Source of the DNA: Alphaproteobacteria bacterium
GTDB lineage: Bacteria > Pseudomonadota > Alphaproteobacteria > MPNO01
Assembly: GCA_964291675.2 (NCBI GenBank)
Contig: OZ219866.1
Location: 2,656,001 to 2,720,000 of the forward strand
Length of the DNA stretch: 64,000 nt
Direction: 5' to 3'
A program made the translations under genes and the position numbers. Below the pieces are notes generated by a model. The model saw only the letters and a program-made list of their open reading frames with translations, ran no database searches and was not told the DNA's origin. The number at the start of each line of letters is the position of its first letter. Within the stretch, counting starts at the first letter, position 1. Below, piece by piece: positions 16,330-37,718 of this stretch.

Positions 16330-16357
16330 CCCGGTCCCGGCGGCCGGGCGGGTCCGC

Positions 16358-17308
16358 CTACTGGGTGGCCGCTATCAGCTTCCTGTTGTTCTCGATGCTG
16401 TCGGCGATGAGCTTTTCGAGCGCCGCGCCGGAGATCAGGCTGGGCCCGCCGAAGGCGCGCTGGACGAACTTCGCCGCCTTGGTGGACGTGTCGGTCAGCA
16501 CCGAGGCGACGGCGTCCGCCATCCCCTGGCGCGCGTCGGCCGGGATTCCCTTGGGGGCGACGATCAGGAACTTGACGCCCGCGTCGTAGGGGATGCCGAT
16601 CTCCTGCAGCGTGGGTATGTCGGGCGAGATCTTGAGCCGCGTCTTCTCCCCCGACACGAGGTTGACCAAGTCGCCCGCCTTGACGCCCTTGTTCTGGATG
16701 CCGGCCACCCAGCCGAGATCCACGTCGCCCGCGGTGATCGCGTTGAGGACCGCGCGGCCGCCGCGGAGCATGACGGTGTTGAACTCGATGCCGAACTTCT
16801 GCTCGGTCACGTAGGCGAGGTCGGCGAGCTTCGGGCCCATCGCGCCGAGCTTGAAGGTGGTGCCCGCCTTGGCCGCCGCGATCACGTCCTCGATCGACTT
16901 CCAGCCGCGCTCCGACCTGGCGACGAGCCCGATCTGGGTGCCCGCCGTCGTCGTGACGTAGGTGAAATCGTCCGCCGCATAGCCGACACTCTTCGCCGCG
17001 AGGACGTTGTAGGTGAAGGTCTGGGTGACCGCGATGCCGAAGGTCAGCCCGTCGTTCGGCTGCGTCTTCAGCTTGCGCGCCATCACCCCGCCGCCTTTGC
17101 CGGTGACGTTCTGCGGGATGATCTTCCACCCCCTGGTCTTCTCCAGCTCGGTCGCGATCAGCCGCGCCTGGGTGTCGGCGCCGCCCCCGGCGGCGAAGGC
17201 GATCATCAGGTTGACGGGACCGCTCGGCTGCCAGGCGGCGGCCGGTCCGGTGACGAAGGCCAGAGCGCCGGCCGCCGCCACCGCCGCACCGAATGACTTG
17301 AAGGACAT
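16358..17308 (-). CDS. tctC: Tripartite tricarboxylate transporter substrate-binding protein TctC (Bug family)
   Basis: Signal peptide; FAAGGGADTQAR, NVTGKGG, PNDGLT, PDIPTLQE, APKGIP. Confidence 0.9.
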   Translation of the reverse strand: MSFKSFGAAVAAAGALAFVTGPAAAWQPSGPVNLMIAFAAGGGADTQARLIATELEKTRGWKIIPQNVTGKGGGVMARKLKTQPNDGLTFGIAVTQTFTYNVLAAKSVGYAADDFTYVTTTAGTQIGLVARSERGWKSIEDVIAAAKAGTTFKLGAMGPKLADLAYVTEQKFGIEFNTVMLRGGRAVLNAITAGDVDLGWVAGIQNKGVKAGDLVNLVSGEKTRLKISPDIPTLQEIGIPYDAGVKFLIVAPKGIPADARQGMADAVASVLTDTSTKAAKFVQRAFGGPSLISGAALEKLIADSIENNRKLIAATQ

Positions 17309-17338
17309 CTCGGGTCTCCTGCTCGAAGGCTCATATTA

Positions 17339-17352
17339 GTTGTCATGACAAC
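17339..17352. promoter_or_regulatory. Perfect 14-bp palindrome GTTGTCATGACAAC, candidate MarR operator upstream of tctC
   Basis: AT-rich perfect inverted repeat 31 bp upstream of tctC; related copy at 20348. Confidence 0.65.
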
Positions 17353-17390
17353 CTTATCACCGAAACACGGTCCCCGGCAACGCGCCGCGC

Positions 17391-18278
17391 CTAGCCGGTG
17401 TGGCGCTCGGCCTCGGGTCCGCCGAGGGGGACGCGCATCAGGTCCTCGCCCCAGACGATGTTGCCGGCGAAGACTTCCGCCATCTCCGCGATCAGGCGTT
17501 CGCGCAGGCCGGGCACGTCCATCTGGTTGGAGACGTGGCTCACCACCAGCGTCCGCGCCCCGGCTTCCGCCGCGATCCGCGCGGACTCCAGATGGCCCGC
17601 CGCGCCCCGGGTCCATTCCGGGCCGGGCGCGGTGCCCGAGATCTGGTAGGTCATGTGGACCATCACGTCCGACCCGGCGGCCAGCCGCGCGAAGGCGCTG
17701 GAGGGGCCGGAATCGCCCGAATAGGCGAACGAGCCCGCCGGCGCATCGAGACGGAAGCCGAGACAGTCGAGCACCGGCTGGGCGTGCGGCACCGAGACGG
17801 TCCCGATGGTCCAGCCGTCGCCCTCGATGACGTCGCCGCTCGCGATCTCGCGCACGGCGGGTTCGGGGCCCTTGCGCGGGCGGGTGCCGCCGCGCGACTC
17901 GTAGACCTGGACGCTCGGCTCGAGCGTCGTGCGCGCCGCGATATCGGGTCCGAACACGCCGTCGGCGGCGAACAGCAGCCGGGTCATGCGCGCGGTACGC
18001 GCCGGCCCGTAGACCTGGAGCTCCGGGACCTGCCCGGCGCCCTGGTCCCAGCGCGTCATCACCAGCCGCGCGTAGTCGAGGCAGTGATCGTAGTGCAGGT
18101 GGGAGAACGCCAGATGGGTGATGTCGGTCGCCCGGTAACCCGCCTCCATCATCCGGTGATAGGCGCCGGGGCCGAAATCGAACAGGATCACGCTGGCGCC
18201 GAGATCGACCAGGTAGCTCGAGCTCGCCCGCTTGAGCGACGGCGCGGGCGTTCCCGTGCCGAGAAGGACGATTTCCAT
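17391..18278 (-). CDS. MBL-fold metallohydrolase, RNase Z / AtsA-like
   Basis: MEIVLLGTGTP, FDFGPG, SHLHYDHCLD, YSGDS, LVVSH. Confidence 0.85.
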   Translation of the reverse strand: MEIVLLGTGTPAPSLKRASSSYLVDLGASVILFDFGPGAYHRMMEAGYRATDITHLAFSHLHYDHCLDYARLVMTRWDQGAGQVPELQVYGPARTARMTRLLFAADGVFGPDIAARTTLEPSVQVYESRGGTRPRKGPEPAVREIASGDVIEGDGWTIGTVSVPHAQPVLDCLGFRLDAPAGSFAYSGDSGPSSAFARLAAGSDVMVHMTYQISGTAPGPEWTRGAAGHLESARIAAEAGARTLVVSHVSNQMDVPGLRERLIAEMAEVFAGNIVWGEDLMRVPLGGPEAERHTG

Positions 18279-18285
18279 GCCGTGA

Positions 18286-18768
18286 CTACTCCTCCGTCGC
18301 CGCCAGCAGCACCCGGGCGCGGGCGTCCAGCCCGTCGAGCAGCGTCGCCAGCCGCTCGCGTTCGGCCGCGCCGAAATCCTCGAACAGGGCCTCTTCCCGC
18401 TCGCGCGAGCGCGCCGCGATCCTGCGATGCAGCGCCCTGCCTTCCCCGGTGAGGGTCAGGATCCGGCTCCGCCCGTCGTCCGGATGGCTGGCTTGCCGCA
18501 CCAGGCCGCGCGCAGTCAGGCGGCGGACGGCCCGGCTGACATTGCTCTTGTCGAGCACCGAGAACTCGGCGACGTCGCGCGCCATCACCGGCCCCAAGGC
18601 GGCCAGGATCGACAGCACGCGCCATTCCAGCACGCTGGTGCCGAACTCCCGCCGGTAGACCCGGGCGGACCACAGCGTCAGGCGGTTGGACAACACCGCC
18701 AGCCTGTAGGCGGTTACCCGGGTCAGGTCGTAGCCGGGATCGTCGCGCGGGTCGTTGCGCACCGCCAT
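18286..18768 (-). CDS. MarR family transcriptional regulator
   Basis: EWRVLSIL, LDKSNVSRAVRRL...GLV...DDGRSRILTLT. Confidence 0.92.
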   Translation of the reverse strand: MAVRNDPRDDPGYDLTRVTAYRLAVLSNRLTLWSARVYRREFGTSVLEWRVLSILAALGPVMARDVAEFSVLDKSNVSRAVRRLTARGLVRQASHPDDGRSRILTLTGEGRALHRRIAARSREREEALFEDFGAAERERLATLLDGLDARARVLLAATEE

Positions 18769-18772
18769 GGTC

Positions 18773-20305
18773 CTATTCGCGGTGTTCGGGAAACGCGTCG
18801 AGCAACGGCCCCGGCCGGGCGCGGACCATGTCCGTCAGCTCGCGGCGCAACCCGCGCCGTCCGTCGTCGTCGAACAAATTGTCCATCTCGTCCGGGTCGT
18901 CGGCGAGGTCGTACATCTCGCCGGCGCCGGAGAGCAAGTCGACGGTGAGCTTGGCGTCCGCCGTGCGAACCGTGCGGAGCCGCAGCTCCACCCCGGCGCG
19001 GCTCGGGTGCAGGTTCCATTCGCCGTAGGCGACGTCTCGGCCTTCCCCGCCCTCGATCAGCGGCTTGAGCGACCGGCTCTGGATGTCGTCCGGGCGGTCG
19101 ATCCCGGCGTAGTCGTAGAACGTCGCCGCGAGGTCCACGGTCGAGACCGGGTCGGCGACGACGCGCCCGGCGGGGACGCCCGGCCCGCGCACGATCAGCC
19201 CGACCCTGAGCAGCCCCTCATACGGCGTCGGCCCCTTGAGGTAGAGGCCGTGATCGCCCAGCAACTCGCCGTGGTCCGCGGTGAACACCGCGAGCGTATC
19301 GTCGGCGAGGCCGAGCGCGTCCAGCCGGTCCAGTATGCGGCCGACGCCGTGGTCGATGAACGCGATCTCGCCGAAATAGTTGGCTGTCATCTCGGCCAGC
19401 TGGCGGTCGGTCTGCGGCTCGATCCGGCTGTATTCGCGGCGCAGGGTGCGCGACCGCTCGGTGCGCGCCCGCGGCTCGTTCTCCAGCGCCGCCCGGTGCC
19501 ACCACGGCCGGCGGTCGAGGTCGCGCGCATGGGTCGGCGAAATGTCCACCTCGTCGGCGCCGTGCAGCCGGCTCCACGGCTCCGGGCAGTCGAACGGGTG
19601 GTGCGGGTCCGGGTAGGAGACCCAGAGGCAGAACGGCGCTTGCGGATCGTGACCGTCGAGAAAGGCCAGCGTGCGATCCGTCACCCAGGTCGTCGAATGC
19701 CAGAGTGCCGGAAGCCTCGAAAACCAGGTCTGCGCCGCCCCGGGCGGCGGCCCGGCATCCTCCGCCCACAGCGACCACGCCTCGCCGTCGCCGCCGCGGC
19801 TCCAGAACCAGCGCTCGAAATGCTGGCCGCGCGGCGGCTTCTCGCAGGGCAGCAGATCGTGCCAGTGGCCGAGGATCATCAGCTCGACCTCGTCGAAGCC
19901 CATATAGGGACCCGTCCAGTCGTCGGGAAAGCCGGCGGACTGCCCGCGGCTCTCCGGCGCGCCGTACGGGGTCGCCGCCGGATCCTCGCCGAAATGGCCC
20001 TTGCCGATGAACTTGCCGGCATAGCCGGCATCCGCGAGACGGCGCGCCCAGCCGCGCTCGGCGGTGCGCGCGTCGAGGTCGACGAAGTTGTCGTAGGCGC
20101 CGTGGGTCAGCGGCAGCATGCCGGTCAGGATCGACGCGCGCGCCGGCTGGCACACCAGGTTGGGCGTGATCGCCGCGGAGAACCGGGTTCCCGCCGCCGC
20201 CATCCGGTCGAGCCAGGGCGTGCGGATCCGCCGCCCCTCGAAGCCGAAACAGTCCCAGCGGTGCTGGTCCGAGGTGATGAGCAGGATGTTGGGCGGTCGC
20301 GGCAC
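18773..20305 (-). CDS. Cys-type sulfatase
   Basis: PNILLITSDQH, CQPARASILTG, GKGH, PDPHHPF, FTADHGE, GLYLKG, YEGLLRV. Confidence 0.92.
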   Translation of the reverse strand: MPRPPNILLITSDQHRWDCFGFEGRRIRTPWLDRMAAAGTRFSAAITPNLVCQPARASILTGMLPLTHGAYDNFVDLDARTAERGWARRLADAGYAGKFIGKGHFGEDPAATPYGAPESRGQSAGFPDDWTGPYMGFDEVELMILGHWHDLLPCEKPPRGQHFERWFWSRGGDGEAWSLWAEDAGPPPGAAQTWFSRLPALWHSTTWVTDRTLAFLDGHDPQAPFCLWVSYPDPHHPFDCPEPWSRLHGADEVDISPTHARDLDRRPWWHRAALENEPRARTERSRTLRREYSRIEPQTDRQLAEMTANYFGEIAFIDHGVGRILDRLDALGLADDTLAVFTADHGELLGDHGLYLKGPTPYEGLLRVGLIVRGPGVPAGRVVADPVSTVDLAATFYDYAGIDRPDDIQSRSLKPLIEGGEGRDVAYGEWNLHPSRAGVELRLRTVRTADAKLTVDLLSGAGEMYDLADDPDEMDNLFDDDGRRGLRRELTDMVRARPGPLLDAFPEHRE

Positions 20306-23804: not shown

Positions 23805-24452
23805 TCACCCGGCGTCGGCCTCGCCCGCCGCCGCTTCGTCCAGCGCGGCCGCGCGGCGATAGGCATCGCGCGTCTCCAGGCGCGACCAGTAGGTTTCGAA
23901 GGCCGGGCGCTTCTCGATCAGCTCGAATTGCAGGCCCCAGAAGACATGAGATCCGACATAGACATCGGCGGCGGAGAAGTCCTCTCCGGCGACGTAGCCC
24001 GCGCCCTCCACCGCGCGTTCCAGAGCCGCCATCACGGTCGGGAAATTGCCGTACCCCACCATCGCCTCCTTGTCCTCGGGCGGGGCCAGGCCGAAGGCGC
24101 GGTTGGTGACCGCCGCCTCCAGCGGACCGGCGGCGAAGAACAGCCAGCGGTAATAGGCGCCGCGCTCCCCGGCCGGCGGCGCGAGCCCGGCGTCGGGGAA
24201 GGCGTCCGCCAGATAGGCGCAGATCGCCGGAGCCTCGGTGACCGCGGTCGCGCCGTGGCGGATCGCCGGCACCTTGCCCATCGGGTTGATCGCCAAATAC
24301 GATTCCGACTTCATCGCCGGCTTGTATTCGAGGAGCTCGGTAAGGTAGGGCACCCCCGCCTCCTCCAGCATCCAGCGCGCGATCCGCCCGCGCGACATCG
24401 GGTTGGTGTACAGCACCAATTCTGCGTCTTGCGGTGCGTTTCCATCGAGCAA
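23805..24452 (-). CDS. Glutathione S-transferase family protein
   Basis: LYTNPMSRGRIARWMLEE, NPMGKVPAI, TEAPAICAYLAD, FSAADVY; TTG start after GGAGG. Confidence 0.92.
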   Translation of the reverse strand: MLDGNAPQDAELVLYTNPMSRGRIARWMLEEAGVPYLTELLEYKPAMKSESYLAINPMGKVPAIRHGATAVTEAPAICAYLADAFPDAGLAPPAGERGAYYRWLFFAAGPLEAAVTNRAFGLAPPEDKEAMVGYGNFPTVMAALERAVEGAGYVAGEDFSAADVYVGSHVFWGLQFELIEKRPAFETYWSRLETRDAYRRAAALDEAAAGEADAG

Positions 24453-24923
24453 GGTTCGTTCCTCCCCCGGTTCTCGATCGAATTCGCCGATTGCGTCGTG
24501 AGCCTGTCCGGCGGTTGCCGTCTCGGGACAACATGCCGAACCCCGGACTTGAGCTCGACATGGACTGTCCCCGATTTTTCCCGCACTCGACGCCGGCAAC
24601 GCCCGTCGGCCCATCGGTACAAGGATCTCGACGGCTGCGACCTTGAGCCGCTCCCGGCGGGCTTGACCGGCGCGCCTCCGGTCCCGACATGAGTATCGGG
24701 AGGCGGACGATGGCGATCCGGATACCCGAGCGCACGGCATCGGATGTTTGCGATGCATAAGTCAAATTTCGCTTTGCCGCACTGCCTCGCGGTTTTGTTT
24801 TCTTTGTCACGACCGCGCCCGTGATGGTAATTTCCCGGCCTTTTCCCGCGCATTCGCGTCCGATCGCTTCCCGCGGGAATTGCGGCGTCCGTGCCTTGCG
24901 ACCGATCGGGATGCGAGGAGGCC

Positions 24924-26948
24924 ATGCCTGACACGACGGTGACGACCCAGCCGCTGAGCCTGCCGGAAGAGCTCGTCCTGATGCTGCTCAACGAGCAGAA
25001 CGGCTATTTCCATCAGGTTCCGGGCTGGGACCTGAACTGCACCGTTGTCGGCGCGGTGCTCGCGGAACTCTCCCTCCAGGCGCGCATCGACACGGATCTG
25101 GATTCGCTGCATCTGCTGGACGCGACGGAAACCGGCGATCCCGCTCTCGATCCGGTTCTGAAGCAGATCGCCGACGAGCCGGATCGACGAAACGCCCAGT
25201 ACTGGATCGAACGCCTCGCCGGGCGGGCGGACGCGATCGTCGACCGGACCCTGGACCGCCTGGTCGAGCTGAAGATCCTGGAGCACCATGACGGCGATTT
25301 CTGGACGCTGGCGACCGCGAGGTGGTACGAGGATCTGCGCGGCGCCTCCCAGGAAGGCACGGTCGGCCAGTTCATCAAGACCCGCGTGGTCAAGGCGCTC
25401 TTCACCGACGAGATTCCCGATCCGAGAGACGTCATCGTCATCTGCCTCGTCGACGCGTGCGACGTCTTTCGCATCATGTTCGAGCTCGACGAGGAGACCG
25501 AAGAGCGCATCGCCTTCATCCGCCAGATGGACCTGATCGGCCGGTCCATAGCGGCGGCGGTGGCGCAGAACATCGCCACCCCGATGCTCAGGCGTTCCAC
25601 CCTCACCAAGAAGATACCCGTCATCGCCCTGCGCCGGCTGCTGCCGAGCCCGCATGTTCGCAGCGGCAACATTCCCGCGGTCTTGGCGGATCTCGCGAGG
25701 GAATACGGCCCGGCGTTCGAGGTCCGTCTGCCGTTCGCGAAACCGATGACCTTCCTCGCCGGGCCCGAGACCAACCGCTGGGTGCACCGGCACGGGCGGA
25801 TGCACCTGAAGGCCGGGGGCTATTTCGCCGAGTTCGAGAAGGTCTACGGCGCGCACGGCGTAATGCCGTCGCTCGACGGCGCCGATCATTTCCGGCTTCG
25901 CAAGGCGATGGGGCCGGCCCAGTCGCGCGGCAGGCTTTCCGGCCGGCTGGACGAGGTCTACCGGCTCGCCCGCGAATTCATGGCGGGCTGGACGGTGGGG
26001 AAAACCTTCCCGGTGCGCGACTGCCGGCGCATGATCAACGCGCAGCTCTCGCCGCTCTTCCTGAGCGTCGATTCGCAGGACATCATCGACGACCTGATGG
26101 ACTTCAAGGAGCGGGCGCTGACGACGCATATCATGAACGCCTTGCCGAGGTTCATGCTGAACACGCCCGGGATGAAGCGCCGCGCCAAAGCCGTCGACAC
26201 GCTGCTGGAACGGATCCAGAGCGTCCACACGCCGGTGCAGCGCGCCGGTTGCCCGCGCGACCTGGCCGACGACTGGCTGAGCCTGCACGCGAGCGATCCG
26301 CAGCTGGTGCCGGAGGCCAATTTGCGTTTCGCCCTGTCCGCGGCGCTGGTGGCCAGCGTCTATCTCGGCGACGCGCTCAGCTTCGCGGTCTACGCGCTGG
26401 CGTCCCAGCCCGCGCTCGGCAAGAGAATCCAGGAAGAAGCCGACGCCCTGTTCGGGAACCGGGACCCGGACGGCGAGGACTTCAACCAGTCGTCGATGGA
26501 GGTCACGCACCGCTTTCTGATGGAGTGCCTCAGGATGTATCCGATCGTCCCCGTGTCGATGCGGGACGTGATGAACTCCTTCGTGCTCGAAGGCTACGAG
26601 CTGCCGGTGGGGGCAAGGGTCAGTATCGCCCAGACGGCCTCGCACTACATGGAAGACGTCTTTCCCGACCCCTTCTCGTTCGACATCGACCGCTATCTGC
26701 CGCCCCGCGAAGAGCACCGCGGCCCGGGCTACGCGCCCTACGGGCTGGGCACGCACAGATGCCTGGGCTCGCGCTGGATGGACCTGCAGCTCGCGGTCAA
26801 CGTGCTGATGATCGCGCATTACTTCACCCTCGAGGTCACCCCCGCGCGCTACGCCGATGCGCTGCCGTTCAGCCCGCTGCCGTCGATGAAGCCGACCGAG
26901 AAGCTGAATTTCCTCGTCGCCGGGCAGAGGCGCGAGCTGCCGGTCTGA
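24924..26948 (+). CDS. GPP34 (GOLPH3/Vps74-like) domain fused to a cytochrome P450
   Basis: N-terminal about 215 aa LSLPEELVLMLL...GAVLAELSLQARID...TGDPALD...LDRLV (GPP34 pattern); C-terminal P450 with ECLR (ExxR), FDIDRY and YGLGTHRCLG; one uninterrupted ORF with GAGGAGG RBS. Confidence 0.85.
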   Translation: MPDTTVTTQPLSLPEELVLMLLNEQNGYFHQVPGWDLNCTVVGAVLAELSLQARIDTDLDSLHLLDATETGDPALDPVLKQIADEPDRRNAQYWIERLAGRADAIVDRTLDRLVELKILEHHDGDFWTLATARWYEDLRGASQEGTVGQFIKTRVVKALFTDEIPDPRDVIVICLVDACDVFRIMFELDEETEERIAFIRQMDLIGRSIAAAVAQNIATPMLRRSTLTKKIPVIALRRLLPSPHVRSGNIPAVLADLAREYGPAFEVRLPFAKPMTFLAGPETNRWVHRHGRMHLKAGGYFAEFEKVYGAHGVMPSLDGADHFRLRKAMGPAQSRGRLSGRLDEVYRLAREFMAGWTVGKTFPVRDCRRMINAQLSPLFLSVDSQDIIDDLMDFKERALTTHIMNALPRFMLNTPGMKRRAKAVDTLLERIQSVHTPVQRAGCPRDLADDWLSLHASDPQLVPEANLRFALSAALVASVYLGDALSFAVYALASQPALGKRIQEEADALFGNRDPDGEDFNQSSMEVTHRFLMECLRMYPIVPVSMRDVMNSFVLEGYELPVGARVSIAQTASHYMEDVFPDPFSFDIDRYLPPREEHRGPGYAPYGLGTHRCLGSRWMDLQLAVNVLMIAHYFTLEVTPARYADALPFSPLPSMKPTEKLNFLVAGQRRELPV

Positions 26949-26984
26949 CGCGGCGCACCCGCCCGGCCGTGGGCGGGACGGCGC

Positions 26985-28343
26985 TCACGCCCTCCTGAAG
27001 CGCCAGCCGTACATCATGCGCCCGTAGAAGTTGAACCACCTGCGCGCCTCAGCGTCCTCGAACGGATAGTCGGCGCCGATCTGCCGCGCCGTCGCCAGGC
27101 CCGAGACGAAACAGGTCTCCTGGCTGTTGACCAGCGTGTGGGCGCCGCAATGCCAGCTTCGCCGCCGGCCCTGAACGAAGCGGAAGAGGTGGATCAGCAG
27201 GGCCACGTGACGCACGTCGTGCACGATGTGCTGGAACCACAAGCGCTTCACGATCTTGCTCTCGTCGATGCGGCTGACCGGGTTGTAGGTCACCAGGCAG
27301 GGCTTGTCGGACCGGTTCGCCCAGGGCTGCTGGTTGTGCATGATATAGGTGATTTCGTAGTTGTCCGGCCTGGCGCCGTATTGCTCGATGTGGTTGCTCC
27401 GGCTGGCGAGCGGCTTGACCTCATTGTCCGGCAGGACGGTGGCGTCGGAATGGACCACCGTGTGGTTGTGGAGCTCGCTCTCGTAGCGGATCGCCGACAG
27501 CAGCCAGCCCTCCAGCAGGGTCGGATCGTCCAGCATCATCAGCGTCTGGTTGGCGTTGCACGCGAAGACCACGTCGTCGAACGTCTCCGTCCCGCCGCGC
27601 TCGTCCTCCACGACCACCCCGGACGCGCGCCGGTAGACCTTGCGCACCGGCCGGCCGAGATAGATCCGGTCCCGGAAGTCCGCCGACATCGCCTCGTAAA
27701 TGCGCCGCGTGCCCCGCTCCCAGGTCTGCATCGGCGTCGCGGTCTCGATGTCGAAGAACTCCAGATACCGGGCGAACAGCGATGCCGGCATGTCGAACAC
27801 GTTGCTGGCCATCAGGAAGTTGACGAACATGGGCTTCAGCACCTGGTAGCGGAAATCGCCGGAGAACCTGCCGAGATTGAGCAGCATCCCCATGCTGACG
27901 TAGTTGAACGGGTTGAGGGCATTCAGCGCCCTGGACCGCGTCCGGTTGAGCCGGCCGAACCGCTTGAGCCGCTTCAGGAGCTTCTGGAATCTCTCGATTT
28001 CCGGCTGCAGCCGCCGCCTGATGTCGGAGTCGAAATCGTGCGCGTAGACGCCGCCGCGATACCTCACGCTGTAGCTGAACCTTGTGTCGATCAGCTCGAT
28101 TCCGTGCTGGCGCATGAACAGGACGATGTGGTGGTAGACGGAGGGAATGCAGGCGGTGACGGAGATGTCGAAGGGTATCGAGCTGCCGTCGTCCTGCTTC
28201 ATGTCGGCGGTGACCGCGTTGCCGCCGAGCCGGGGCTCTGCCTCGAACAGCCGGAAATCGAAGCGGTCGGGATGCCGGCCGAGCGCCCAGGCCACGCCCA
28301 GACCCGAGACCCCGCCGCCGATTATGGCGATCCGTCTCGGCAT
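26985..28343 (-). CDS. FAD-dependent oxidoreductase (COG2907-like NAD/FAD-binding, amine-oxidase fold)
   Basis: IAIIGGGVSGL, FEAEPRLGGNA, VHSD, LVTYNP, QGRRRSWHCGAH...SGLATA. Confidence 0.8.
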   Translation of the reverse strand: MPRRIAIIGGGVSGLGVAWALGRHPDRFDFRLFEAEPRLGGNAVTADMKQDDGSSIPFDISVTACIPSVYHHIVLFMRQHGIELIDTRFSYSVRYRGGVYAHDFDSDIRRRLQPEIERFQKLLKRLKRFGRLNRTRSRALNALNPFNYVSMGMLLNLGRFSGDFRYQVLKPMFVNFLMASNVFDMPASLFARYLEFFDIETATPMQTWERGTRRIYEAMSADFRDRIYLGRPVRKVYRRASGVVVEDERGGTETFDDVVFACNANQTLMMLDDPTLLEGWLLSAIRYESELHNHTVVHSDATVLPDNEVKPLASRSNHIEQYGARPDNYEITYIMHNQQPWANRSDKPCLVTYNPVSRIDESKIVKRLWFQHIVHDVRHVALLIHLFRFVQGRRRSWHCGAHTLVNSQETCFVSGLATARQIGADYPFEDAEARRWFNFYGRMMYGWRFRRA

Positions 28344-28362
28344 CGCCGGGCCCGGCCCGGCT

Positions 28363-29184
28363 CTAGCGCACCCGCTTCAGCGCCGTCCGGGTGAAGTCGC
28401 CGAGGTCGAGGTCGGTGCCGAACTCGTAATCCGACCAGTTCAGCACGGTGCTCTTGCCCGTGAGATGGTTGCTCATGGTGATCTTGCTCGCGCGCCAGAA
28501 CCGGTCGAGATATCTCTTGTAATCCTCGACCGCCATGGTCTTGAGATGTGCGCCCCGGCGGTCGAAGAACTGGATCCGGATGCTGCGAAGCTCCTTCTTG
28601 TCGAGCCAGACCAGTTGCCGGGAATATCCCGAATCCTTGCTGAGCGGGATGCGCTCCAGGACGCTGCACCGGAGGTCGCCGCAGGCCTCGTCGCGCAGCA
28701 GGCGGTGCTTGAATTTCTCGACCTCGACGGCGCCCATGTCCTCGTAGGAGAACTCGCTGCCCATGAAGGAGCCGGACTGCTTCGACGAGCTGATGCGCTT
28801 GACCCGTTTCAGGGCGGGAAGATAGAGCCACTGCTCGTCCGGCCTGTCCTTGTGGGCGTGAACCAGGAACCCGGTCCCCCTGACATCGCGCGGGCGGTCG
28901 AACACGAAGATGGTGCGGTCGCCGTCGCCCTCGACCTCGATGGTCTTCAGGCGGATCTGACGGCGGCTTTCCTGCCCCCGCTTGGTGCGCAACACCATGG
29001 TGAGGTTGGCGGTGAAATTGCCGAAACCCTTCTGGCGCTGGCGGGATTCGGTGGCGAGCTTGCGGCCGGCTTCCTCGGCGCTGCTGTCCGCCCGGACGGA
29101 TGCCGGCTCGGCCGTCCAGGCGAAGACGGCGGCCAGGATGCCGCACCAGAGCGGCATCGGGTGGGGGAGCGAGGCGCGAGTCAC
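28363..29184 (-). CDS. Outer-membrane lipoprotein-sorting (LolA-like) periplasmic protein
   Basis: Signal peptide; FDRPRDVRGTGFL, QWLYLPALKRVKRI, SFMGSEFSYED. Confidence 0.88.
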   Translation of the reverse strand: MTRASLPHPMPLWCGILAAVFAWTAEPASVRADSSAEEAGRKLATESRQRQKGFGNFTANLTMVLRTKRGQESRRQIRLKTIEVEGDGDRTIFVFDRPRDVRGTGFLVHAHKDRPDEQWLYLPALKRVKRISSSKQSGSFMGSEFSYEDMGAVEVEKFKHRLLRDEACGDLRCSVLERIPLSKDSGYSRQLVWLDKKELRSIRIQFFDRRGAHLKTMAVEDYKRYLDRFWRASKITMSNHLTGKSTVLNWSDYEFGTDLDLGDFTRTALKRVR

Positions 29185-29281
29185 CGGTTCCTCCTGTCGG
29201 TCGCCTTCACCGCAAGCTCTTCGCGCATGCTAGCACGAATCCCGACCGGCCCGGCCTGCGGCATCCTGTCATACGCCCTGT

Positions 29282-31609
29282 CTACTCGGCCTCGCGCCGC
29301 AGCCGTTCCCTGATCTGCGCGCCGGTCTCCCGGGCGCCGTCGAGCGCCATCAGGAGCGGCGGCAGAAGCAGGAAATCCGCCAGCAATGCGACGATGACGG
29401 TTATGCCCACCAGCAGGCCGAGCGCCTGGTTGGTCGCCATCCCCGAGGTGCCGAACACCATGAAGCCGAGCGCGAACACGACGGTGGTCGCGAACAGCGC
29501 CCTGCCCACCGTGCGAAAGGCGGATTGCACCGATTCGGAAGGCAACAGCCCGCGCTTCCTCCCCTCGACGTATTTGGTCATGAAGTGGATCGTGTCGTCG
29601 ACGATGATGCCGAAGGCGATCGCCGTGACCACCGAGGCCGCGACACCGACCTCGCCCACCGCATACCCCCACAGGCCCATCGCCATGGCGGCGGGGACGA
29701 AATTGGGGATCAGGGTGATCAGGCCGAGACGCACGCTCCTGAACATGAACAGCAGCAGCAGCGAGACGATGGCCATGGCGGTGACGGTGCCGATCAGCAT
29801 GCCCTCGATGTTGCGCTGGATCGAACGCGCGCCGACCACGGCCACGCCGCTGGCCCGGGTCGCCATCTCGGGGGCGTTCTGCCGGAACCAGTCCTGCGCG
29901 CGCTCGTCGAGCGCGATCTTCTCGCTGGTCGACAGGCTCTTGAGCACCACCGTCAGCCGGGTCGACGACCGGTCCACGTCGATCAGGTTGTTGAGGTCGC
30001 GGCCGACCGGCAAAGAGAGCTCGTAGAGCAGCAGATACTGCGCGGCGAGATCGGAGCTCTCCGGAATCCTGTAGAACGCCGGATCGTCGCCATGCAGGTT
30101 CTTGTTCAGGCGCTTCAGGATGTCGGCGATGCCGAACACGTGGGCGATTTCCGGCTGCGAGCGGAACCACTCGGACAGCGCATCGACCTTGCCGAGATAC
30201 CCGACATCGGTGATGCCGCCCTCCCGCCCGGCGCCGAGCGAGTATTCGTAGGTCTCCACGCCGGTAAAATTCTTGCTGATGAAATCGGTGGACCGGCGGA
30301 ACTCGTAGCTCTCGTCGAGCAGCTCCAGCCAGTTCTCCTTGAGCTCGATCCGCGAGATGCCGGCGATCAGCACCACCACCAGCACGCTGAAGGAGATCAG
30401 CAGCGTCGTGTGGCGGGAGACCACGAACCGCCCCAGAAGGTCGAAGAAATCGGATCCGCCCGCGCGCGGCTTCCGGGCGCGCATCGGCAGGATCGACAGG
30501 AGCACCGGCAGCAGGGTCGCCGAATAGACGAAGGCGCAGAGCGCGCCGAACGCCACCATGTTGCCCATCACCTTGAACGGCGGCATCTCCGCAAAGTTCA
30601 GACTGAGGAAGCCGATCGCCGTGGTCAGCGAAGTCAGGAAGACGGGCCACAGATTGACGCGCAGCGAATGGACGACCGCCTGCCGGCGGTCCATGCCCTC
30701 GCGCAAGCCCGCGAACATGCCCTCGATCACGTGGACGGAATGCGCGACGGTGACCGCCATCAGGACGAACATCGCCGCCGCGCTCTCGCCGAACAGCTTC
30801 ATCCCGGTCCAGCCGACGAACCCCAGCGCCGACAGGATGACCGCGACCATCATCGCGACGATCGCCACGGTCCCCCAGATCGAGCGCAGCAGGATCACGG
30901 CGACGACCAGCATCGTCGCGAGGGCGATGGGGGCGAGCACCGCCATCTCGCCGTCGATGGCATCGCGCATCGCCCGGTTGAGCACGATCTCGCCGGTCAG
31001 GTGGTAGTCGACATTCGAGAACTTCTCGCGCGCCTCGACGGCGGTGTCGTAGAGGAAGTCGGTGACCTCGAGCTTTCCCTGCTCGCGGTTCTCGGGAAGC
31101 GCGACGCTGACCACCAGCCCGGCGACGCGGCCGTCGCGCGAGACGAAGCGCCCGGCGACCTCCCGGGTGGCGAGAGCGATGCGCTCGATTCGTTCGATGT
31201 CCTGGTCGCTGAGCGAGCCGGCCTCGTCGATGAGCGGTTCGACGACCAGCTCGTCCTCGCGGCCTTCGCTGTGGGTGTAGTTGGCGATCGAATCGACGCG
31301 GGTGACGTAGGGCGTCCGCCACAGCCGCTCGGTCAGGTCCTCGATGGCGACCAGGGTCTCCCGCGTGAAGATGGTGCCGCTCTTCGGCGCCACCGCGACC
31401 AGCGCGCCGTCGGAGAGCGCGTAGGTGTCCTCCAGCCGCTCCAGTGCGACGATATGCGGGTCGTCCTTGCCGAAGTGATTCCGCACGTCGACATCGACCG
31501 CGACGATCCGCCCGGCCCCCGCCGCGAGGCCGGCCATGAAGAGCAGGGAGAGCAGCATGGTCAGCCATCGCCGACCCATCACGAGCGCGACAAACGATTC
31601 CAGATTCAT
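29282..31609 (-). CDS. MMPL / RND-family lipid transporter
   Basis: Two repeats of TM bundle plus periplasmic loop; LTSLTTAIGFLSL, GIIVDDTIHF, LLLPPLL. Confidence 0.9.
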   Translation of the reverse strand: MNLESFVALVMGRRWLTMLLSLLFMAGLAAGAGRIVAVDVDVRNHFGKDDPHIVALERLEDTYALSDGALVAVAPKSGTIFTRETLVAIEDLTERLWRTPYVTRVDSIANYTHSEGREDELVVEPLIDEAGSLSDQDIERIERIALATREVAGRFVSRDGRVAGLVVSVALPENREQGKLEVTDFLYDTAVEAREKFSNVDYHLTGEIVLNRAMRDAIDGEMAVLAPIALATMLVVAVILLRSIWGTVAIVAMMVAVILSALGFVGWTGMKLFGESAAAMFVLMAVTVAHSVHVIEGMFAGLREGMDRRQAVVHSLRVNLWPVFLTSLTTAIGFLSLNFAEMPPFKVMGNMVAFGALCAFVYSATLLPVLLSILPMRARKPRAGGSDFFDLLGRFVVSRHTTLLISFSVLVVVLIAGISRIELKENWLELLDESYEFRRSTDFISKNFTGVETYEYSLGAGREGGITDVGYLGKVDALSEWFRSQPEIAHVFGIADILKRLNKNLHGDDPAFYRIPESSDLAAQYLLLYELSLPVGRDLNNLIDVDRSSTRLTVVLKSLSTSEKIALDERAQDWFRQNAPEMATRASGVAVVGARSIQRNIEGMLIGTVTAMAIVSLLLLFMFRSVRLGLITLIPNFVPAAMAMGLWGYAVGEVGVAASVVTAIAFGIIVDDTIHFMTKYVEGRKRGLLPSESVQSAFRTVGRALFATTVVFALGFMVFGTSGMATNQALGLLVGITVIVALLADFLLLPPLLMALDGARETGAQIRERLRREAE

Positions 31610-31856
31610 GCGGAATTACCGGCCGGTGAGCAGGTCCCGAGCATAGCATCTCGCAGTCGCTCCGACACCGGCATTCCCCACTCCACCCGCGACACCGTGT
31701 CTCTCGCCGTCCGCTGGCCGACACCGACCGCCATCGGCTATGATGCCGGACGAGAGCCTCGCTCGCCTTGGCCCGCTGGGCACCGTCACGATGCGGAGGG
31801 CGGTTCGATGCCCCGACCACAGATGCCGTCGCGCGATCCGCGCTGACCGAATCCCC

Positions 31857-32951
31857 GTGGAACCGCCTCGACAGGGGCGCGGATCCCCGCGGGACGCGAC
31901 CGGGGATCGCCGCGCGGGCGACGGCAACGCCGTTCTCTACCCGTTTCCCGAGGGGTGGTATTTCGTCGCCGACCGCCGCGCGCTGGCGAAGCGGAATCCG
32001 CTTCAGAGGCAGTGGCTCGGGGAGGATATCGTCGTCTGGTCCGACGACGGGGGAGCGGTCTGCGCGGCCCGCGCGGTGTGCCCCCATCTCGGCGCCTCCC
32101 TGGGTCCTGCGGCCGGCGGGCGGGTGCGCGACGGTCGCCTCGTGTGCCCGTTTCACGGCTTCGCCTACGACGCCCGCGGCGCGTGCGTCGCCACGCCCTT
32201 CGGCCCGCCGCCGCCTGCGGCGAAGCTGGAGGTGTTCGAGACGCGGGTGATCTCCGGCCTGGTCTTCGCCTGGTGGGGCATCGACGGGCGTCCGCCGCGA
32301 TGGCGCCTTCCCGAGGACCCGCCGGAAGGCGACGGGTGGGGCGGGAAGGAGATCCGCACCATCCGGTTTCCCGGCCACCCGCAGGAGACCACGGAGAACT
32401 CGGTGGACCTCGGCCATCTGCGCTACGTGCACGGCTACGACGCGGTCAAGCCGGTCGGCGAGACCGCGGTGGAGGGCGCGTATCTCCTGACCCGCTTCGA
32501 TTTCAGGCGCCGCCGCCGGATCGCCGGGTTCACCGACCTGATCTACGACATCTCGGCGACCGCCCATATCCATGGGCTGGGCTATTCGTTCGTCGAGGTC
32601 GTCGAGCGCACGATCGGCATGCACTCCCGCCTCTGGGTGCTGGCCACACCGGTCGACGGCCGGCTCATCGACATGGTCCTGGTCTCGCAGCTGCGCGAGC
32701 TGCGCGAGCCCAGGCGCCCGATCTCCGGTCTCGGTTTCCTGCCGGTGAAGCTGCGCACCCGGCTGATGAACAGGATTCTGATGTCCTCGCAGGTAAGGGA
32801 CGTTCGACAGGACGTGACGATCTGGGAAAACAAGCGATACCGGCCGCGGCCGAGCCTGTCCCGTTCCGACGGCGAGATCGGCAGGTACCGGCGCTATTGC
32901 AGGCAGTTCTATCCGTGCGGCCGCGCCGGCGGCGTGCGGGGAGAAGATTGA
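31857..32951 (+). CDS. Rieske non-heme iron oxygenase, Neverland/DAF-36/KshA/PrnD-like
   Basis: FPEGWY, CPHLGA...CPFHG Rieske ligands, ENSVDLGHLRYVH iron site, QDVTIWENKRY...DGEIGRYRRYCRQFY; start uncertain. Confidence 0.85.
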   Translation: MEPPRQGRGSPRDATGDRRAGDGNAVLYPFPEGWYFVADRRALAKRNPLQRQWLGEDIVVWSDDGGAVCAARAVCPHLGASLGPAAGGRVRDGRLVCPFHGFAYDARGACVATPFGPPPPAAKLEVFETRVISGLVFAWWGIDGRPPRWRLPEDPPEGDGWGGKEIRTIRFPGHPQETTENSVDLGHLRYVHGYDAVKPVGETAVEGAYLLTRFDFRRRRRIAGFTDLIYDISATAHIHGLGYSFVEVVERTIGMHSRLWVLATPVDGRLIDMVLVSQLRELREPRRPISGLGFLPVKLRTRLMNRILMSSQVRDVRQDVTIWENKRYRPRPSLSRSDGEIGRYRRYCRQFYPCGRAGGVRGED

Positions 32952-33014: not shown

Positions 33015-34172
33015 ATGGGTGAAATCACGCTCGGCGTGGAAGAGGAGTTGATGATCGTCGATCCGCGCACGCGCGACGTGGTCGCCGACCCCGACGAGGG
33101 GATCATGGTCCGGGCCGTCGAGCTGGCCGGCGAGCACAAGGTGGTCAGCGAGTTCATGCGTTCGCAGATCGAAACCAATTCCCGGGTGTGCGGCTCGGTC
33201 GCCGAGGTCGAACAGAGCCTCAGGGAGACGCGGCGCTGCGCCATCGACGCCACGCGCGAGCACGGCGCCCGGGTGATCGCGTCCTCGACCCATCCCTGGG
33301 CCCGGTGGCAGGAACAGCAGGTGACGCAGAAGGAGCGCTACCAGCGCGCCGAGATCGATTTCCAGGACAGCGTGCGGCAGTTCTTCATCGGCGGGATGCA
33401 CATCCATGCCGGGTTCGACGGCGACGACCGCAGGATCGAGGTGATGTACGCGCTGCGCGGCTATCTGGCCCTGTTCCTCGTGCTCTCCTGCTCGTCGCCC
33501 TTCCATGGCGGCCGGCTGACCGGGCTCAAATCCTACCGCCAGATGGCGATCGGCGCGCTGCCGCGCACCGGGACGCCGCCGGCGATGCGCACGCGGTCCG
33601 ACTACGACGCCGTGGTGGCGCGTTACAAGTCGATCGAGGCGATCGAGGACGGCAGCGAGCTGCGCTGGGACATCCGCCCGTCGGCGAGCTACGCCACGAT
33701 CGAGCTCAGGATCTGCGACATCTGCCCCAGGATCGAGGAGGCCGTGGCCATCGCCGCCCTCTATGCCTGCCTGATCCGCAACCTGAACGCGCGGCTGGAT
33801 GCCGGAGAGCGGCTGGCGGAGATTCCGCCGGAATCGGTCGAAGAGGGGCGCTGGATCGCGCAGCGCTACGGTACCTTCGCCTTCCTGCCCTACCCGGACG
33901 GGCGAGGCGGCCGGGTCGATGTTGCCGATTTCGCGGGCGAGCTCGTGGCCGCGCTCGGCGACGATGCGCGGGCGCTCGGCTGCGAGTCGGCGCTCGCGCG
34001 GGTCGAACGAATCGTTGCTCTCGGCAACAGCGCCGACCGGCAGGAGGACGTCTACCGGCAGGCGATGCTGGACGGGGCGGACAGCGCGGAGGCGCTGCGC
34101 GCGGTGGTCGATTCGGTGATCGCCGAGACCGAGCGCGGAGTCGCGTCCGCCGACGCAGCGGCGTCCGGGTGA
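33015..34172 (+). CDS. Carboxylate-amine ligase YbdK / glutamate-cysteine ligase family 2
   Basis: TLGVEEE, QIET, STHP, GMHIHAG, SSPF, WDIRPS, TIELRICD. Confidence 0.9.
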   Translation: MGEITLGVEEELMIVDPRTRDVVADPDEGIMVRAVELAGEHKVVSEFMRSQIETNSRVCGSVAEVEQSLRETRRCAIDATREHGARVIASSTHPWARWQEQQVTQKERYQRAEIDFQDSVRQFFIGGMHIHAGFDGDDRRIEVMYALRGYLALFLVLSCSSPFHGGRLTGLKSYRQMAIGALPRTGTPPAMRTRSDYDAVVARYKSIEAIEDGSELRWDIRPSASYATIELRICDICPRIEEAVAIAALYACLIRNLNARLDAGERLAEIPPESVEEGRWIAQRYGTFAFLPYPDGRGGRVDVADFAGELVAALGDDARALGCESALARVERIVALGNSADRQEDVYRQAMLDGADSAEALRAVVDSVIAETERGVASADAAASG

Positions 34173-34205
34173 CGGCCCAATGCGGGATCGAGTGCGGACA
34201 AGCCC

Positions 34206-35063
34206 ATGAACCAAGACATGAACGGAAAAACCTGCCTGATCACCGGCGCCAACGCGGGAATCGGAAAGGCGGCGGCGCTCGGCCTCGCGCGGCTGGGCGC
34301 GACGGTGGTGCTGCTCTGCCGAAGCGAGGCCCGCGGCCGCGCGGCCGTGGCGGAGATCGAACGCCGCAGCGGCAGCCGCGCGCTCCATCTGCTGGTCGCC
34401 GACCTCGCCTCGCAGCCCGAGATCCGCCGCGTGGCGGCGGAGTACCTAGAACGCTTCGAGCGTCTCGACGTGCTGGTCAACAACGCGGCCGTGCTCGCCT
34501 GGCAGGAGCGCCGGCTCAGCGAGGACGGGCTGGAGCTCACCTTCGCTGTCAACCACCTGGCGCCGTTCCTGCTGACCGGGCTGTTGCTCGACCGGCTCAA
34601 GGCGAGCGCGCCTTCCCGCATCGTCACCGTGGCCTCGGGCGCGCACCGGAGAGCCCCGCTCGATTTCGACGACTTGCAGAACGAGCGCGACTACTCGCCG
34701 TTCGACGCCTATTGCCGGTCCAAGCTGGCCAATGTGTACTTCACCTACGAGCTCGCGCGCCGCCTCGAAGGGACCGGGGTGACGGCCAACTGCCTGCACC
34801 CGGGCGTGGTCTCGACGGCCCTGTTCCGCGACATGAGATGGTGGCAGCGGATCGCCATCTGGCTCGGCCGCCCGTTCCTCCTGACGCCGGCGCGCGGCGC
34901 CGACACGGCGGTCTATCTCGCCGCCTCGGGCGATGTCGCCGGCGTCACGGGAAAGTATTTCGAGAAGCGCGAGGCGGTCCGGTCCTCGCCCGTCTCCTAC
35001 GATGCCGAGCACGCGCGGCGCCTGTGGGAGGCGAGCGAGGCGTTGACGGAGGCCCGGGACTAG
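34206..35063 (+). CDS. Short-chain dehydrogenase, retinol-dehydrogenase-like subfamily
   Basis: TGANAGIG, DLAS, LVNNAA, AVNHLAPFLLT, YCRSK (YxxxK), LHPGVV. Confidence 0.92.
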   Translation: MNQDMNGKTCLITGANAGIGKAAALGLARLGATVVLLCRSEARGRAAVAEIERRSGSRALHLLVADLASQPEIRRVAAEYLERFERLDVLVNNAAVLAWQERRLSEDGLELTFAVNHLAPFLLTGLLLDRLKASAPSRIVTVASGAHRRAPLDFDDLQNERDYSPFDAYCRSKLANVYFTYELARRLEGTGVTANCLHPGVVSTALFRDMRWWQRIAIWLGRPFLLTPARGADTAVYLAASGDVAGVTGKYFEKREAVRSSPVSYDAEHARRLWEASEALTEARD

Positions 35064-35455
35064 CCTGCACCCGTCCGCGAGCCGGTTCGCCGCGCGAGCC
35101 ACCATGCGACCCAAACCGGCAGGCTCAGCGCGGCCGCCGCGACGGCGATGGCGACGGGTCCGAGCAGGCCGGCGAAGAGCCCGGCCGCCACGGTGAGCGC
35201 GCCGAGCCCGACACCCGCCGCCCAGGCGGATCTCCGGTAGCCCCGCCGCCACAGCGCGCGGCAGGCGAGCGCGAGCGGCAGGCCGCAGGGCGCAACGACG
35301 GCGAGGCTCCCCGCCGACATGAGCAACGTGGCCAGCCACAAGCCCGGCTCGGCCGGTGGCCCGAAGCGGAGCAGGGCGGAGGCGACGATGCCGGCCGGCA
35401 GCCACAGCAGGGCGAGCGGCCAGAACCCGTATCGCCCGGCGATCCCCGGTCTCAC
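35060..35455 (-). CDS. Small hypothetical membrane protein (about 4 TM)
   Basis: Hydrophobic ORF directly downstream of dps. Confidence 0.55.
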   Translation of the reverse strand: MRPGIAGRYGFWPLALLWLPAGIVASALLRFGPPAEPGLWLATLLMSAGSLAVVAPCGLPLALACRALWRRGYRRSAWAAGVGLGALTVAAGLFAGLLGPVAIAVAAAALSLPVWVAWWLARRTGSRTGAG

Positions 35456-35467
35456 GCCATCCCCCGG

Positions 35468-35962: not shown

Positions 35963-36071
35963 GCTGAGCCTGCTACTTCCTTTAGAACGATTCCAAATGT
36001 GGTGTTTCGCGCGACGAATTCAAGAGCGGGGAGGCTCGCGTCTCCAGCCAGCCGTCCGCAAACCCGTCCGT

Positions 36072-36863: not shown

Positions 36864-36866
36864 GGC

Positions 36867-37502: not shown

Positions 37503-37718
37503 GGCCGCTGTCCCGCTGGCGCGGGGATGGCGTCGGGGCGGCAAGTCAGGCGGAAGCCGGTGCGCATTGCATCAGCTGGTTCGCTTGCAGGGAGTGCCAC
37601 CGAGAAACTGCGCGACCGGGCGACACGGCTGGACGCTCACGCATTCGTGAATGTACAAGCTACGACGCCAGACGCAAGGCGATCCGGTCGATAGCAGACA
37701 ATCGTTGGAGCCGGTTCC

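Follow-up and report, generated by a model that had tools for sequence, protein, structure and literature searches.

What does a bacterium do with a cytochrome P450 that carries, at its N-terminus, a domain of the same fold as the eukaryotic proteins GOLPH3 and Vps74? The question is raised by a gene in a 64,000-nucleotide stretch of DNA from an Alphaproteobacteria bacterium (assembly GCA_964291675.2, contig OZ219866.1, positions 2,656,001 to 2,720,000 of the forward strand), hereafter the window, which encodes a GPP34 (GOLPH3/Vps74-fold) domain fused to a P450. The gene is a new member of an architecture that is already published and biochemically uncharacterised. The explanation that we prefer, and to which we assign a probability of about one half, is that the protein is a cytoplasmic P450 tailoring sterol-like, probably host-derived lipids, and held at membrane machinery by its GPP34 domain. 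New here are the replacement of the lipid-pocket residues, the acidity of the GPP34 domain, the loss of the usual I-helix motif in the clade, the recurring gene set and a survey of triterpene cyclases in carrier genomes.

A genuine fusion with an acidic GOLPH3-fold domain

The open frame at 24891-26948 (+) yields, from the ATG at 24924, a protein of 674 aa, which fits the length of 672-674 aa of most of the at least 120 relatives among the matches listed. The first-pass annotation, made from the sequence alone, had described a single 674-aa reading frame with a GPP34 domain in front of a P450, and the domain searches agreed with it on each point. The Pfam model GPP34 (PF05719) was matched over profile positions 1-199 of 201 (E 2.6e-30; 106.4 bits vs a cut-off of 29.1), with the GPP34 motif LSLPEELVLMLL at residues 11-22, and the Pfam model p450 (PF00067) was matched with E 3.8e-34 and 118.7 bits, both the ExxR and the haem-loop motifs quoted earlier being present. 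Several P450 equivalogs in NCBIfam matched the fusion protein weakly, below threshold.

The fusion is genuine and no assembly artefact, a possibility that the earlier annotation had left to be checked. Both Pfam domains were found in all 120 relatives listed (database clustered at 90%), and a scan of one genome per species detected 214 stretches encoding relatives, the best 80 of which were kept and correspond to 77 distinct loci, all of them in metagenome-assembled genomes (MAGs), that encode the full-length fusion at 59-91% identity in at least 8 phyla. The domain junction is moreover spanned by contigs of two sequencing runs, X1 (record 4; 25422-25871, 12 differences in 450) and X3 (record 26; 25401-25693, 25 differences in 293), of which X1 may be the source sample and hence perhaps not independent. 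Most sequencing runs contained less than 0.13 of the sampled words and therefore carry no evidence on habitat. Contigs of the RNA library X14 match parts of the fusion gene at about 85-93% identity and come from relatives; as DNA carry-over is also possible, they are not evidence of transcription.

The assignment of the N-terminal domain to the GOLPH3/Vps74 fold was supported independently of Pfam. A profile of 23 N-domains, searched against all solved chains, retrieved human GOLPH3 (3kn1, E 1e-9; 9qpq, 2e-9) and yeast Vps74 (2zii, 1e-7), with no other solved chain better than E 0.14. The AlphaFold2 model of the whole protein, built on a 41-row alignment, had a predicted local distance difference test score (pLDDT) of 89.5 and a predicted template modelling score (pTM) of 0.87, and the N-domain modelled alone had a pLDDT of 81. 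Foldseek returned eight hits to the N-domain model at E<=0.001, all of them GOLPH3/Vps74 (E 4.8e-9 to 2.8e-6, TM scores 0.45-0.66), the ninth-ranked hit lying beyond this threshold at E 0.09. The bacterial domain shares with GOLPH3/Vps74 (3kn1, 9qpq, 2zih) the fold and a Pfam match across the whole profile, and it is acidic by net charge, as is the client-binding face of GOLPH3; it is only 15-21% identical, lacks the N-terminal COPI-binding tail and is fused to an enzyme. It is conserved like the P450 domain, with median identities of 0.69 and 0.71, respectively, in 60 rows below 80% identity.

The pocket with which GOLPH3 binds phosphatidylinositol 4-phosphate (PI4P) consists of W81, R90, R171 and R174 (Wood et al. 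2009, PMC2806290). In a hidden Markov model alignment to 9qpq (native numbering), these residues correspond to P33, V42, D103 and V106 of the window protein, and a 10-residue GOLPH3 insertion preceding R171 is missing from the bacterial domain; as a sequence alignment with no superposition, it is of high confidence at R90 and R174 and of moderate confidence at W81 and R171. Across 79 clade members the same positions are occupied by P (R in at least 3), V/I/A, E/D and I/V. Residues 1-218 have a pI of 4.36 and contain 19 K+R vs 40 D+E, giving a net charge of about -20 to -21, and for the GPP34 domain the 74 clade members have a median net charge of -20 and the 41 diverse fusions one of -14, whereas the 26-residue linker carries +6 in the window protein (clade median +5). 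The replaced pocket residues, together with a net charge of about -20, make PI4P or anionic-membrane binding of the GOLPH3 kind appear unlikely. The model further predicts two beta-hairpins at 119-129 and 132-145, with F126, W127, W134 and Y135, as candidates for a hydrophobic hairpin of peripheral membrane binding that may correspond to GOLPH3 beta3/beta4. In GOLPH3 itself, an electronegative face binds the short basic tails of Golgi enzymes (bioRxiv 10.1101/2025.06.26.661719). The bacterial domain may accordingly keep the acidic, client-binding character while dispensing with the lipid pocket, as judged from its net charge rather than from a computed surface. The replaced PI4P residues and the negative charge speak against the simple form of the earlier proposal, in which GPP34 may serve as a lipid- or membrane-docking module in place of a transmembrane anchor and deliver lipid substrate to the haem; a modified docking role would fit the lipid/sterol gene neighbourhood described below.

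A metal or Fe-S site within the GPP34 domain was also considered, as C39, C179, C200 and H122 are conserved in the close clade, and was rejected because the window protein has R at position 200 and none of the four residues is conserved among the 41 diverse fusions. Complex prediction of the GPP34 domain with the P450 domain and haem gave scores of 0.00, 0.42 and 0.09, which count neither way on binding.

Gene neighbourhood and possible sources of a sterol substrate

Open reading frames (ORFs) were called in the 77 loci and clustered, the clusters were named with Pfam, and gene orders were listed over a range of about 10 kb. At least one enzyme or transporter gene of a recurring set was found within this range in 74 of the 77 loci, and immediately adjacent to the fusion gene in 70. 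The set includes a sterol C-methyltransferase (SMT; 34 loci, adjacent in 30), a KshA-like Rieske oxygenase (44 loci by clustering, 53 by tblastn), an LkcE-like flavoprotein (35 and 37 loci, respectively), an RND-type transporter of some kind (62 loci) and LolA_like (9 loci by clustering, 13 by tblastn). All 37 members of the methyltransferase cluster that were scanned, including the copy in the window's own genome, matched Sterol_MT_C, and the cluster consensus contains FGWGESLHFAP, which we take to resemble the sterol-binding Region I of SMTs. Adjacency of SMT and fusion genes was seen in four named phyla, and the genome of the closest relative (L002) holds a second fusion copy with an SMT gene at its locus.

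The type of transporter follows the envelope or phylum. MMPL proteins were present in 18 and LolA-like proteins in 9 of the 29 Pseudomonadota loci; a distinct MMPL with sterol-sensing-domain hits was found in 21 of 24 Chloroflexota and 7 of 7 Actinomycetota loci; and AcrB occurred in all Gemmatimonadota (6/6) and Latescibacterota (3/3) loci, with HlyD beside it in 5 of these 9. In seven Chloroflexota loci, a gene for an LprG-like (LppX_LprAFG-type) lipoprotein and an MFS transporter gene lie near the fusion (e.g., L073:104-877, +), a pair that presumably resembles the mycobacterial LprG-P55 lipid-export pair. In four Paracoccaceae loci, a gene for an FA_hydroxylase (PF04116) membrane oxygenase, from what we take to be the superfamily of sterol desaturases and C-4 methyl oxidases, stands upstream of the flavoprotein, Rieske and fusion genes (e.g., L025:3767-4828, +).

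In the window (Table 1), the G+C content falls to 65-67% over 24001-32000, against about 71% on both sides and about 70% overall, and the dip corresponds to the fusion gene together with those for the flavoprotein, the LolA-like protein, the MMPL transporter and the Rieske protein. The listed ORF of the Rieske protein begins about 60 codons ahead of the region aligned to KshA, and the tblastn matches in relatives are shorter, so that its true start probably lies downstream of 31740. This protein shares the Rieske domain and the KshA_C catalytic domain with KshA (4qdc, 2zyl), but the phmmer match covers residues 59-232 only, no KshB-like reductase recurs beside Rieske genes of this type, and the context is not that of a steroid-catabolic operon. 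The segments 14174-20305 and 33015-38729 contain ordinary-looking housekeeping and uptake genes, among them genes for a TctABC tricarboxylate transporter, a metallo-beta-lactamase-fold protein, a MarR regulator and a sulfatase, as well as a YbdK-type carboxylate-amine ligase, an SDR protein, a ferritin-like protein and a ZnuABC-type metal uptake system.

Table 1. Coordinates of the fusion gene, its parts and the associated genes in the window
Feature	Position	Strand	Remarks
Shine-Dalgarno-like GAGGAGG	24915..24921	+	read directly; 2 bases between its end and ATG 24924
GPP34-P450 fusion gene, 674 aa	24924..26948	+	member of the 'GPP34_L' family
GPP34 (GOLPH3/Vps74-fold) domain, residues 13-214	24960..25565	+	
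Basic linker, residues 219-244	25578..25655	+	6 K/R, no D/E; pLDDT about 63 at residues 221-230
Cytochrome P450 domain, residues 245-641	25656..26846	+	ExxR E534/R537; haem-ligand loop YGLGTHRCLG, C613
Non-canonical I-helix motif A477-S-V-Y-L-G-D483	26352..26372	+	stands where A/G-G-x-D/E-T is usual
FAD amine-oxidase-fold oxidoreductase	26985..28343	-	best solved relative LkcE, E 6.5e-25; convergent with the fusion gene; recurring neighbour
LolA_like (PF17131) periplasmic lipid/lipoprotein-carrier-like protein	28363..29184	-	
MMPL/RND-superfamily (HAE3-like) transporter	29282..31609	-	
Rieske [2Fe-2S] oxygenase, KshA_C catalytic domain	31740..32951	+	best solved relatives 3-ketosteroid 9alpha-hydroxylases, E 8e-22

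The genome to which the window belongs (4.81 Mb, 93.7% complete) contains one fusion gene, one short GPP34 gene and one SMT gene. The short GPP34 is encoded at G000:C2:1198773-1199369 (L084:9494-10411, +) by an ORF of 305 aa, of which residues 94-292 match the domain (E 2.5e-40), between TRAP-transporter DctP and STAS-domain genes and with no P450 nearby. The SMT-family gene (G000:C2:2373053-2373241; L082:10047-11078, -) is accompanied by genes for two 2OG-Fe(II) oxygenases, a luciferase-like monooxygenase and a gamma-glutamyltranspeptidase, with a Rieske/VanA_C oxygenase gene about 5 kb off. No oxidosqualene cyclase was found in this genome, its single cyclase being a squalene-hopene cyclase (TIGR01507, 751.8 bits vs a cut-off of 431; osq_cycl, 263.8), encoded at G000:C2:2921869-2922819 (L083:9827-12907, -) by a longest ORF of 1026 aa in which the cyclase domains begin only at residue 398-400, so that the true start is probably later. 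ERG24 was not found either, in a search that matched in no control genome.

The cyclase survey was extended to the genomes of 50 of the 77 carrier loci. Matches at the level of oxidosqualene cyclase were obtained in 10 of these genomes (714-755 bits, below the curated 851 and well separated from the rest), matches at the hopene-cyclase level only in 11 (158-266 bits), fragments only in 2 (under 30 bits) and no match in 27. Matches at the oxidosqualene-cyclase level were thus lacking in 40 of the 50 genomes, and matches at any cyclase level in 29. As most carrier genomes lack an oxidosqualene cyclase, a sterol substrate would in most cases have to be acquired externally, and the host is its probable source.

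Sterol modification by sponge symbionts has precedents. Brown et al. (2023, PMC10070321) demonstrated the in vitro alkylation of desmosterol and 24-methylenecholesterol by SMTs of such bacteria, and ERG24-CYP51-LSS clusters, with a separate CYP51, are known from sponge MAGs (Kelly et al. 2022, PMC9531527). These sets (SMT with sdmA/sdmB in the former, ERG24-CYP51-LSS in the latter) have in common with the loci studied here the habitat, the phyla, the SMT family, a Rieske oxygenase beside SMT and horizontal spread; they differ in that the Rieske protein of the window scores far below the SdmA cut-off and most carrier genomes are without a cyclase. The text and seven readable supplements of PMC10070321 make no mention of P450, Golgi, GPP34, Rieske or MMPL, and GPP34 and Golgi were not found in PMC9531527.

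The P450 domain and the family

Residues E534, R537, G607, H611 and C613 are invariant in the 41 aligned diverse fusions. The best solved sequence hits of the P450 domain were CYP51 proteins, including the Methylococcus capsulatus CYP51-ferredoxin fusion (6mi0, 7jj1, 6mcw, 7snm; E 1.2e-17), which is likewise a bacterial sterol P450 in a fusion protein and is also among the top structural hits (TMt 0.80). The window protein is nevertheless not a CYP51, given an identity of about 20%, a sequence match limited to residues 472-645 and a differing I-helix (Y-L vs H-T in CYP51), and its fused partner, unlike the ferredoxin, is not a redox domain.

The I-helix acid-alcohol pair (A/G-G-x-D/E-T) serves O2 activation and is typical of P450s, though not obligatory. 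It is absent from the window protein, whose I-helix motif falls at a gap in the alignment to CYP51, and A-S-[VAM]-Y-[LF]-G-D occupies the site in 70 of the 79 clade rows listed. The alignment of diverse fusions has 30 of its 41 rows without a one-residue I-helix gap, and these comprise 22 with D/E-T, 4 with H-T and 4 with other pairs; the remaining 11 are gapped, one of them (P0130) having H-x-T. Since D/E-T or H-T is common among diverse fusions, the fusion arose on ordinary monooxygenases, and the comparison of these rows indicates that the widespread clade later changed the proton-delivery residues. This exchange of D/E-T for Y-L suggests that the clade handles oxygen or protons in an unusual way.

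The architecture was described and counted in a study of sponge symbionts (PMC11706023; Microbiome 2025;13:4), which distinguishes a short form, GPP34_S, and a long form, GPP34_L, 656 of 663 long forms being GPP34+P450; GPP34+Rieske was reported in 2 genomes and GPP34+ABC ATPase in 5. The first-pass annotation knew of no characterisation of the fusion, which holds for its biochemistry, since the literature searched contained none and no other relevant paper beyond PMC11706023, but not for the architecture. The window protein differs in nothing in kind from the GPP34_L proteins as described there: it belongs with them by its architecture of about 670 aa and by its symbiont-type lineage, these proteins coming from the same lineages (Alphaproteobacteria, Chloroflexota, Acidimicrobiia, Gemmatimonadota, Latescibacterota and others) and likewise co-occurring with a short GPP34 in one genome. 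The words 'sterol', 'methyltransferase' and 'MMPL' appear nowhere in the main text of that paper.

The 77 loci belong to Alphaproteobacteria, Dehalococcoidia, Acidimicrobiia, Gemmatimonadota, Latescibacterota, Rhodothermaceae, Opitutales, Bacteriovoracales and Gammaproteobacteria, the nearest named relatives being Defluviicoccus sp. MAGs (91%). Among representatives at 50% identity, 382 proteins were found at E<1e-30, many of them full-length fusions at 27-57% identity; of 10 distant fusion clusters, 2 carry names (a Caldilineaceae MAG and Candidatus Poriferisodalis), so that exclusivity to sponges is neither refuted nor independently confirmed. Variants of the architecture include a tandem GPP34-GPP34-P450 protein (P0134, 872 aa) and a GPP34-GPP34 protein without P450 (P0196, 444 aa). 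In a Candidatus Palauibacter locus (L034), two GPP34-P450 paralogues, at L034:1062-3005 (-) and L034:10001-12016 (+) and 43% and 71% identical to the window protein, respectively, flank HlyD, AcrB and SMT genes.

In a FastTree phylogeny of 74 full-length proteins, a quick and unrooted reconstruction, the phyla formed near-clades separated by short inter-phylum branches, with Actinomycetota nested in a Chloroflexota group, Latescibacterota in two places and Bdellovibrionota among Pseudomonadota. Rampant recent transfer between phyla was considered and set aside, as the tree needs just the minimum of 7 phylum label changes and recent exchange is thus not shown. Together with the placement of Actinomycetota, Latescibacterota and Bdellovibrionota in the tree, the identity of the non-proteobacterial loci to the window protein (59-71%, except L017 with 76% and L027 with 73%) and the shuffled gene order of the recurring set suggest a small number of old transfers, with vertical inheritance thereafter, rather than free recent exchange.

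Competing explanations and their implications

In the explanation that we prefer, a haem-thiolate P450 would remain in the cytoplasm, its N-terminal GOLPH3/Vps74-fold domain replacing the membrane anchor of eukaryotic P450s, and would work within a recurring gene set, spread among unrelated sponge-symbiont lineages, that tailors and moves a sterol-like lipid by means of SMT, the KshA-like Rieske protein, the LkcE-like flavoprotein and an RND-type lipid transporter. The transporter would vary with the type of cell envelope, the window having the MMPL and LolA-like carrier version. From the acidity of the domain and the electronegative client-binding face of GOLPH3, we infer that GPP34 positions the P450 at membrane machinery. 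It might hold on to basic stretches of partner or membrane proteins, insert its aromatic hairpins into the membrane, or combine the two. That GPP34 has also been reported in fusion with Rieske and ABC ATPase proteins (PMC11706023) fits a general accessory module for membrane-lipid enzymes. The architecture, the fold, the residue replacements, the charge, the synteny and the cyclase survey are direct observations of the present analysis, from which the substrate class, its host origin, the docking role and the chemistry are deduced. More tentatively, and with odds clearly below even, symbionts of many phyla may share a transferable set that takes up and re-tailors host sterols. SMT would alkylate them at C-24, and the Rieske enzyme, the flavoprotein and the GPP34-P450 would oxidise or desaturate them. 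In this scenario, the GOLPH3-fold domain would be a bacterial counterpart of the Golgi adaptor that assembles lipid-modifying enzymes at the membrane, and the P450 would use a non-canonical I-helix chemistry.

A number of observations weigh against the sterol-tailoring explanation. No SMT gene adjoins the fusion in the window, and the only SMT-family gene of the genome is about 283 kb away. The cyclase counts come from 50 carrier genomes of unreported completeness. The Rieske protein is not an SdmA equivalog (NF052579, 31.4 bits vs a cut-off of 600), and LkcE, the only close solved relative of the flavoprotein, acts on a polyketide and not on a sterol. The structural neighbours of the whole model are mixed (CYP184A1, the Methylococcus CYP51-ferredoxin protein, BM3 and CYP120A1, at 16-20% identity), and the nearest named stand-alone relative of the P450 is annotated 'P450 120', CYP120 being a retinoid hydroxylase. 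The sterol-sensing-domain model was matched by 33 of the 34 MMPLs scanned, but RND-type proteins are related to this domain and such hits are expected for many of them, which makes these matches weak evidence, and the MMPL of the window shows only PF03176. No ferredoxin or reductase recurs beside the fusion gene among the clustered neighbours of the 77 loci, and these loci are phylogenetically related, so that their counts are not independent events. As to docking, a net charge of about -20 speaks against direct electrostatic binding to an anionic bacterial membrane. Pairing of the acidic GPP34 with basic partners was considered on the pI values of the window's Rieske protein and flavoprotein (10.0 and 9.45, respectively), and was dropped as too weak to use, their homologues being only moderately basic (median net charge +4, range -5 to +15, in conserved columns).

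Several of these points would suit a gene set of the same composition whose substrate is hydrophobic but not a sterol; candidates include hopanoids, carotenoids or retinoids, terpenoids of the sponge and polyketide-like amides. The genome has its squalene-hopene cyclase, the MMPL is weakly similar to HpnN, the P450 relatives include CYP97 carotenoid hydroxylases besides CYP120, the flavoprotein is of the amine-oxidase/phytoene-desaturase fold and resembles LkcE, and an adjacent SMT is missing in the window. We regard this as unlikely, as a Sterol_MT_C methyltransferase is the immediate neighbour in 30 of 77 loci, sponge-symbiont enzymes of the SMT family methylate sterols in vitro (PMC10070321), the best solved relatives of the Rieske protein act on steroids, and an endogenous hopanoid cannot be the general substrate when 29 of 50 carrier genomes give no match to a triterpene cyclase. 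Somewhat less probable again is that GPP34 acts on the P450 itself. It might regulate the enzyme intramolecularly or mediate its oligomerisation, or it might cover the face to which redox partners bind, so that the chemistry, peroxide-driven or of an isomerase type, would need no ferredoxin. Vps74 is a tetramer, and P450 redox partners are typically acidic, as the GPP34 domain is; the pTM of 0.87 suggests a fixed arrangement of both domains, the clade has lost the acid-alcohol pair, no redox partner recurs nearby, and proteins with tandem GPP34 domains exist. The fusions that keep D/E-T (22 of 41) or have H-T (5) point instead to an origin on ordinary monooxygenases, and the published Rieske and ABC fusions argue for a more general role (PMC11706023).

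The published proposal is a different one, namely that symbionts secrete GPP34 proteins, among them the long form with its P450, as effectors which bind host PI4P on phagosomes and block phagosome maturation, the symbiont thereby escaping digestion (PMC11706023). In its favour, that study reports the family only from sponge (and coral) symbionts and not from free-living relatives, the long form only from sponge symbionts, and both forms as expressed in sponge metatranscriptomes; the fold is that of a eukaryotic PI4P effector, and some of the 77 loci, all MAGs, are in taxa with sponge-derived names (e.g., Poriferihabitaceae, Spongiisocius). However, the four pocket residues are replaced in the window protein and across the clade, the domain is strongly acidic, and the N-terminus, MPDTTVTTQPLSLPEE, has by inspection, with no predictor, no hydrophobic signal-peptide-like stretch. 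Furthermore, a P450 needs haem and, usually, electron donors, and 70 of 77 loci have, directly beside the fusion, a gene of the recurring set for a lipid enzyme or a transporter rather than for a secretion system. For the fusion, we therefore consider secretion improbable and rank it below a cytoplasmic, sterol-tailoring P450.

The GPP34 family is among the most widespread symbiont-specific genes of sponges, and the sole published hypothesis on it rests on the eukaryotic namesake. The evidence from residues, charge and neighbourhood points to lipid, probably sterol, metabolism, which can be tested by ordinary biochemistry. If the sterol-tailoring explanation is true, it would assign a role to a prokaryotic GOLPH3-fold domain, and a P450 docked by an adaptor domain instead of a transmembrane helix would represent a new way of membrane placement. 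If, moreover, symbionts share a set for host sterols as outlined above, bacteria that make no sterols themselves would have a part in the unusual sterol composition of sponges, which includes side-chain-alkylated forms that serve as fossil biomarkers. The question thus bears on who makes and modifies sponge sterols and hence on the reading of fossils of the 24-isopropylcholestane type (PMC10070321).

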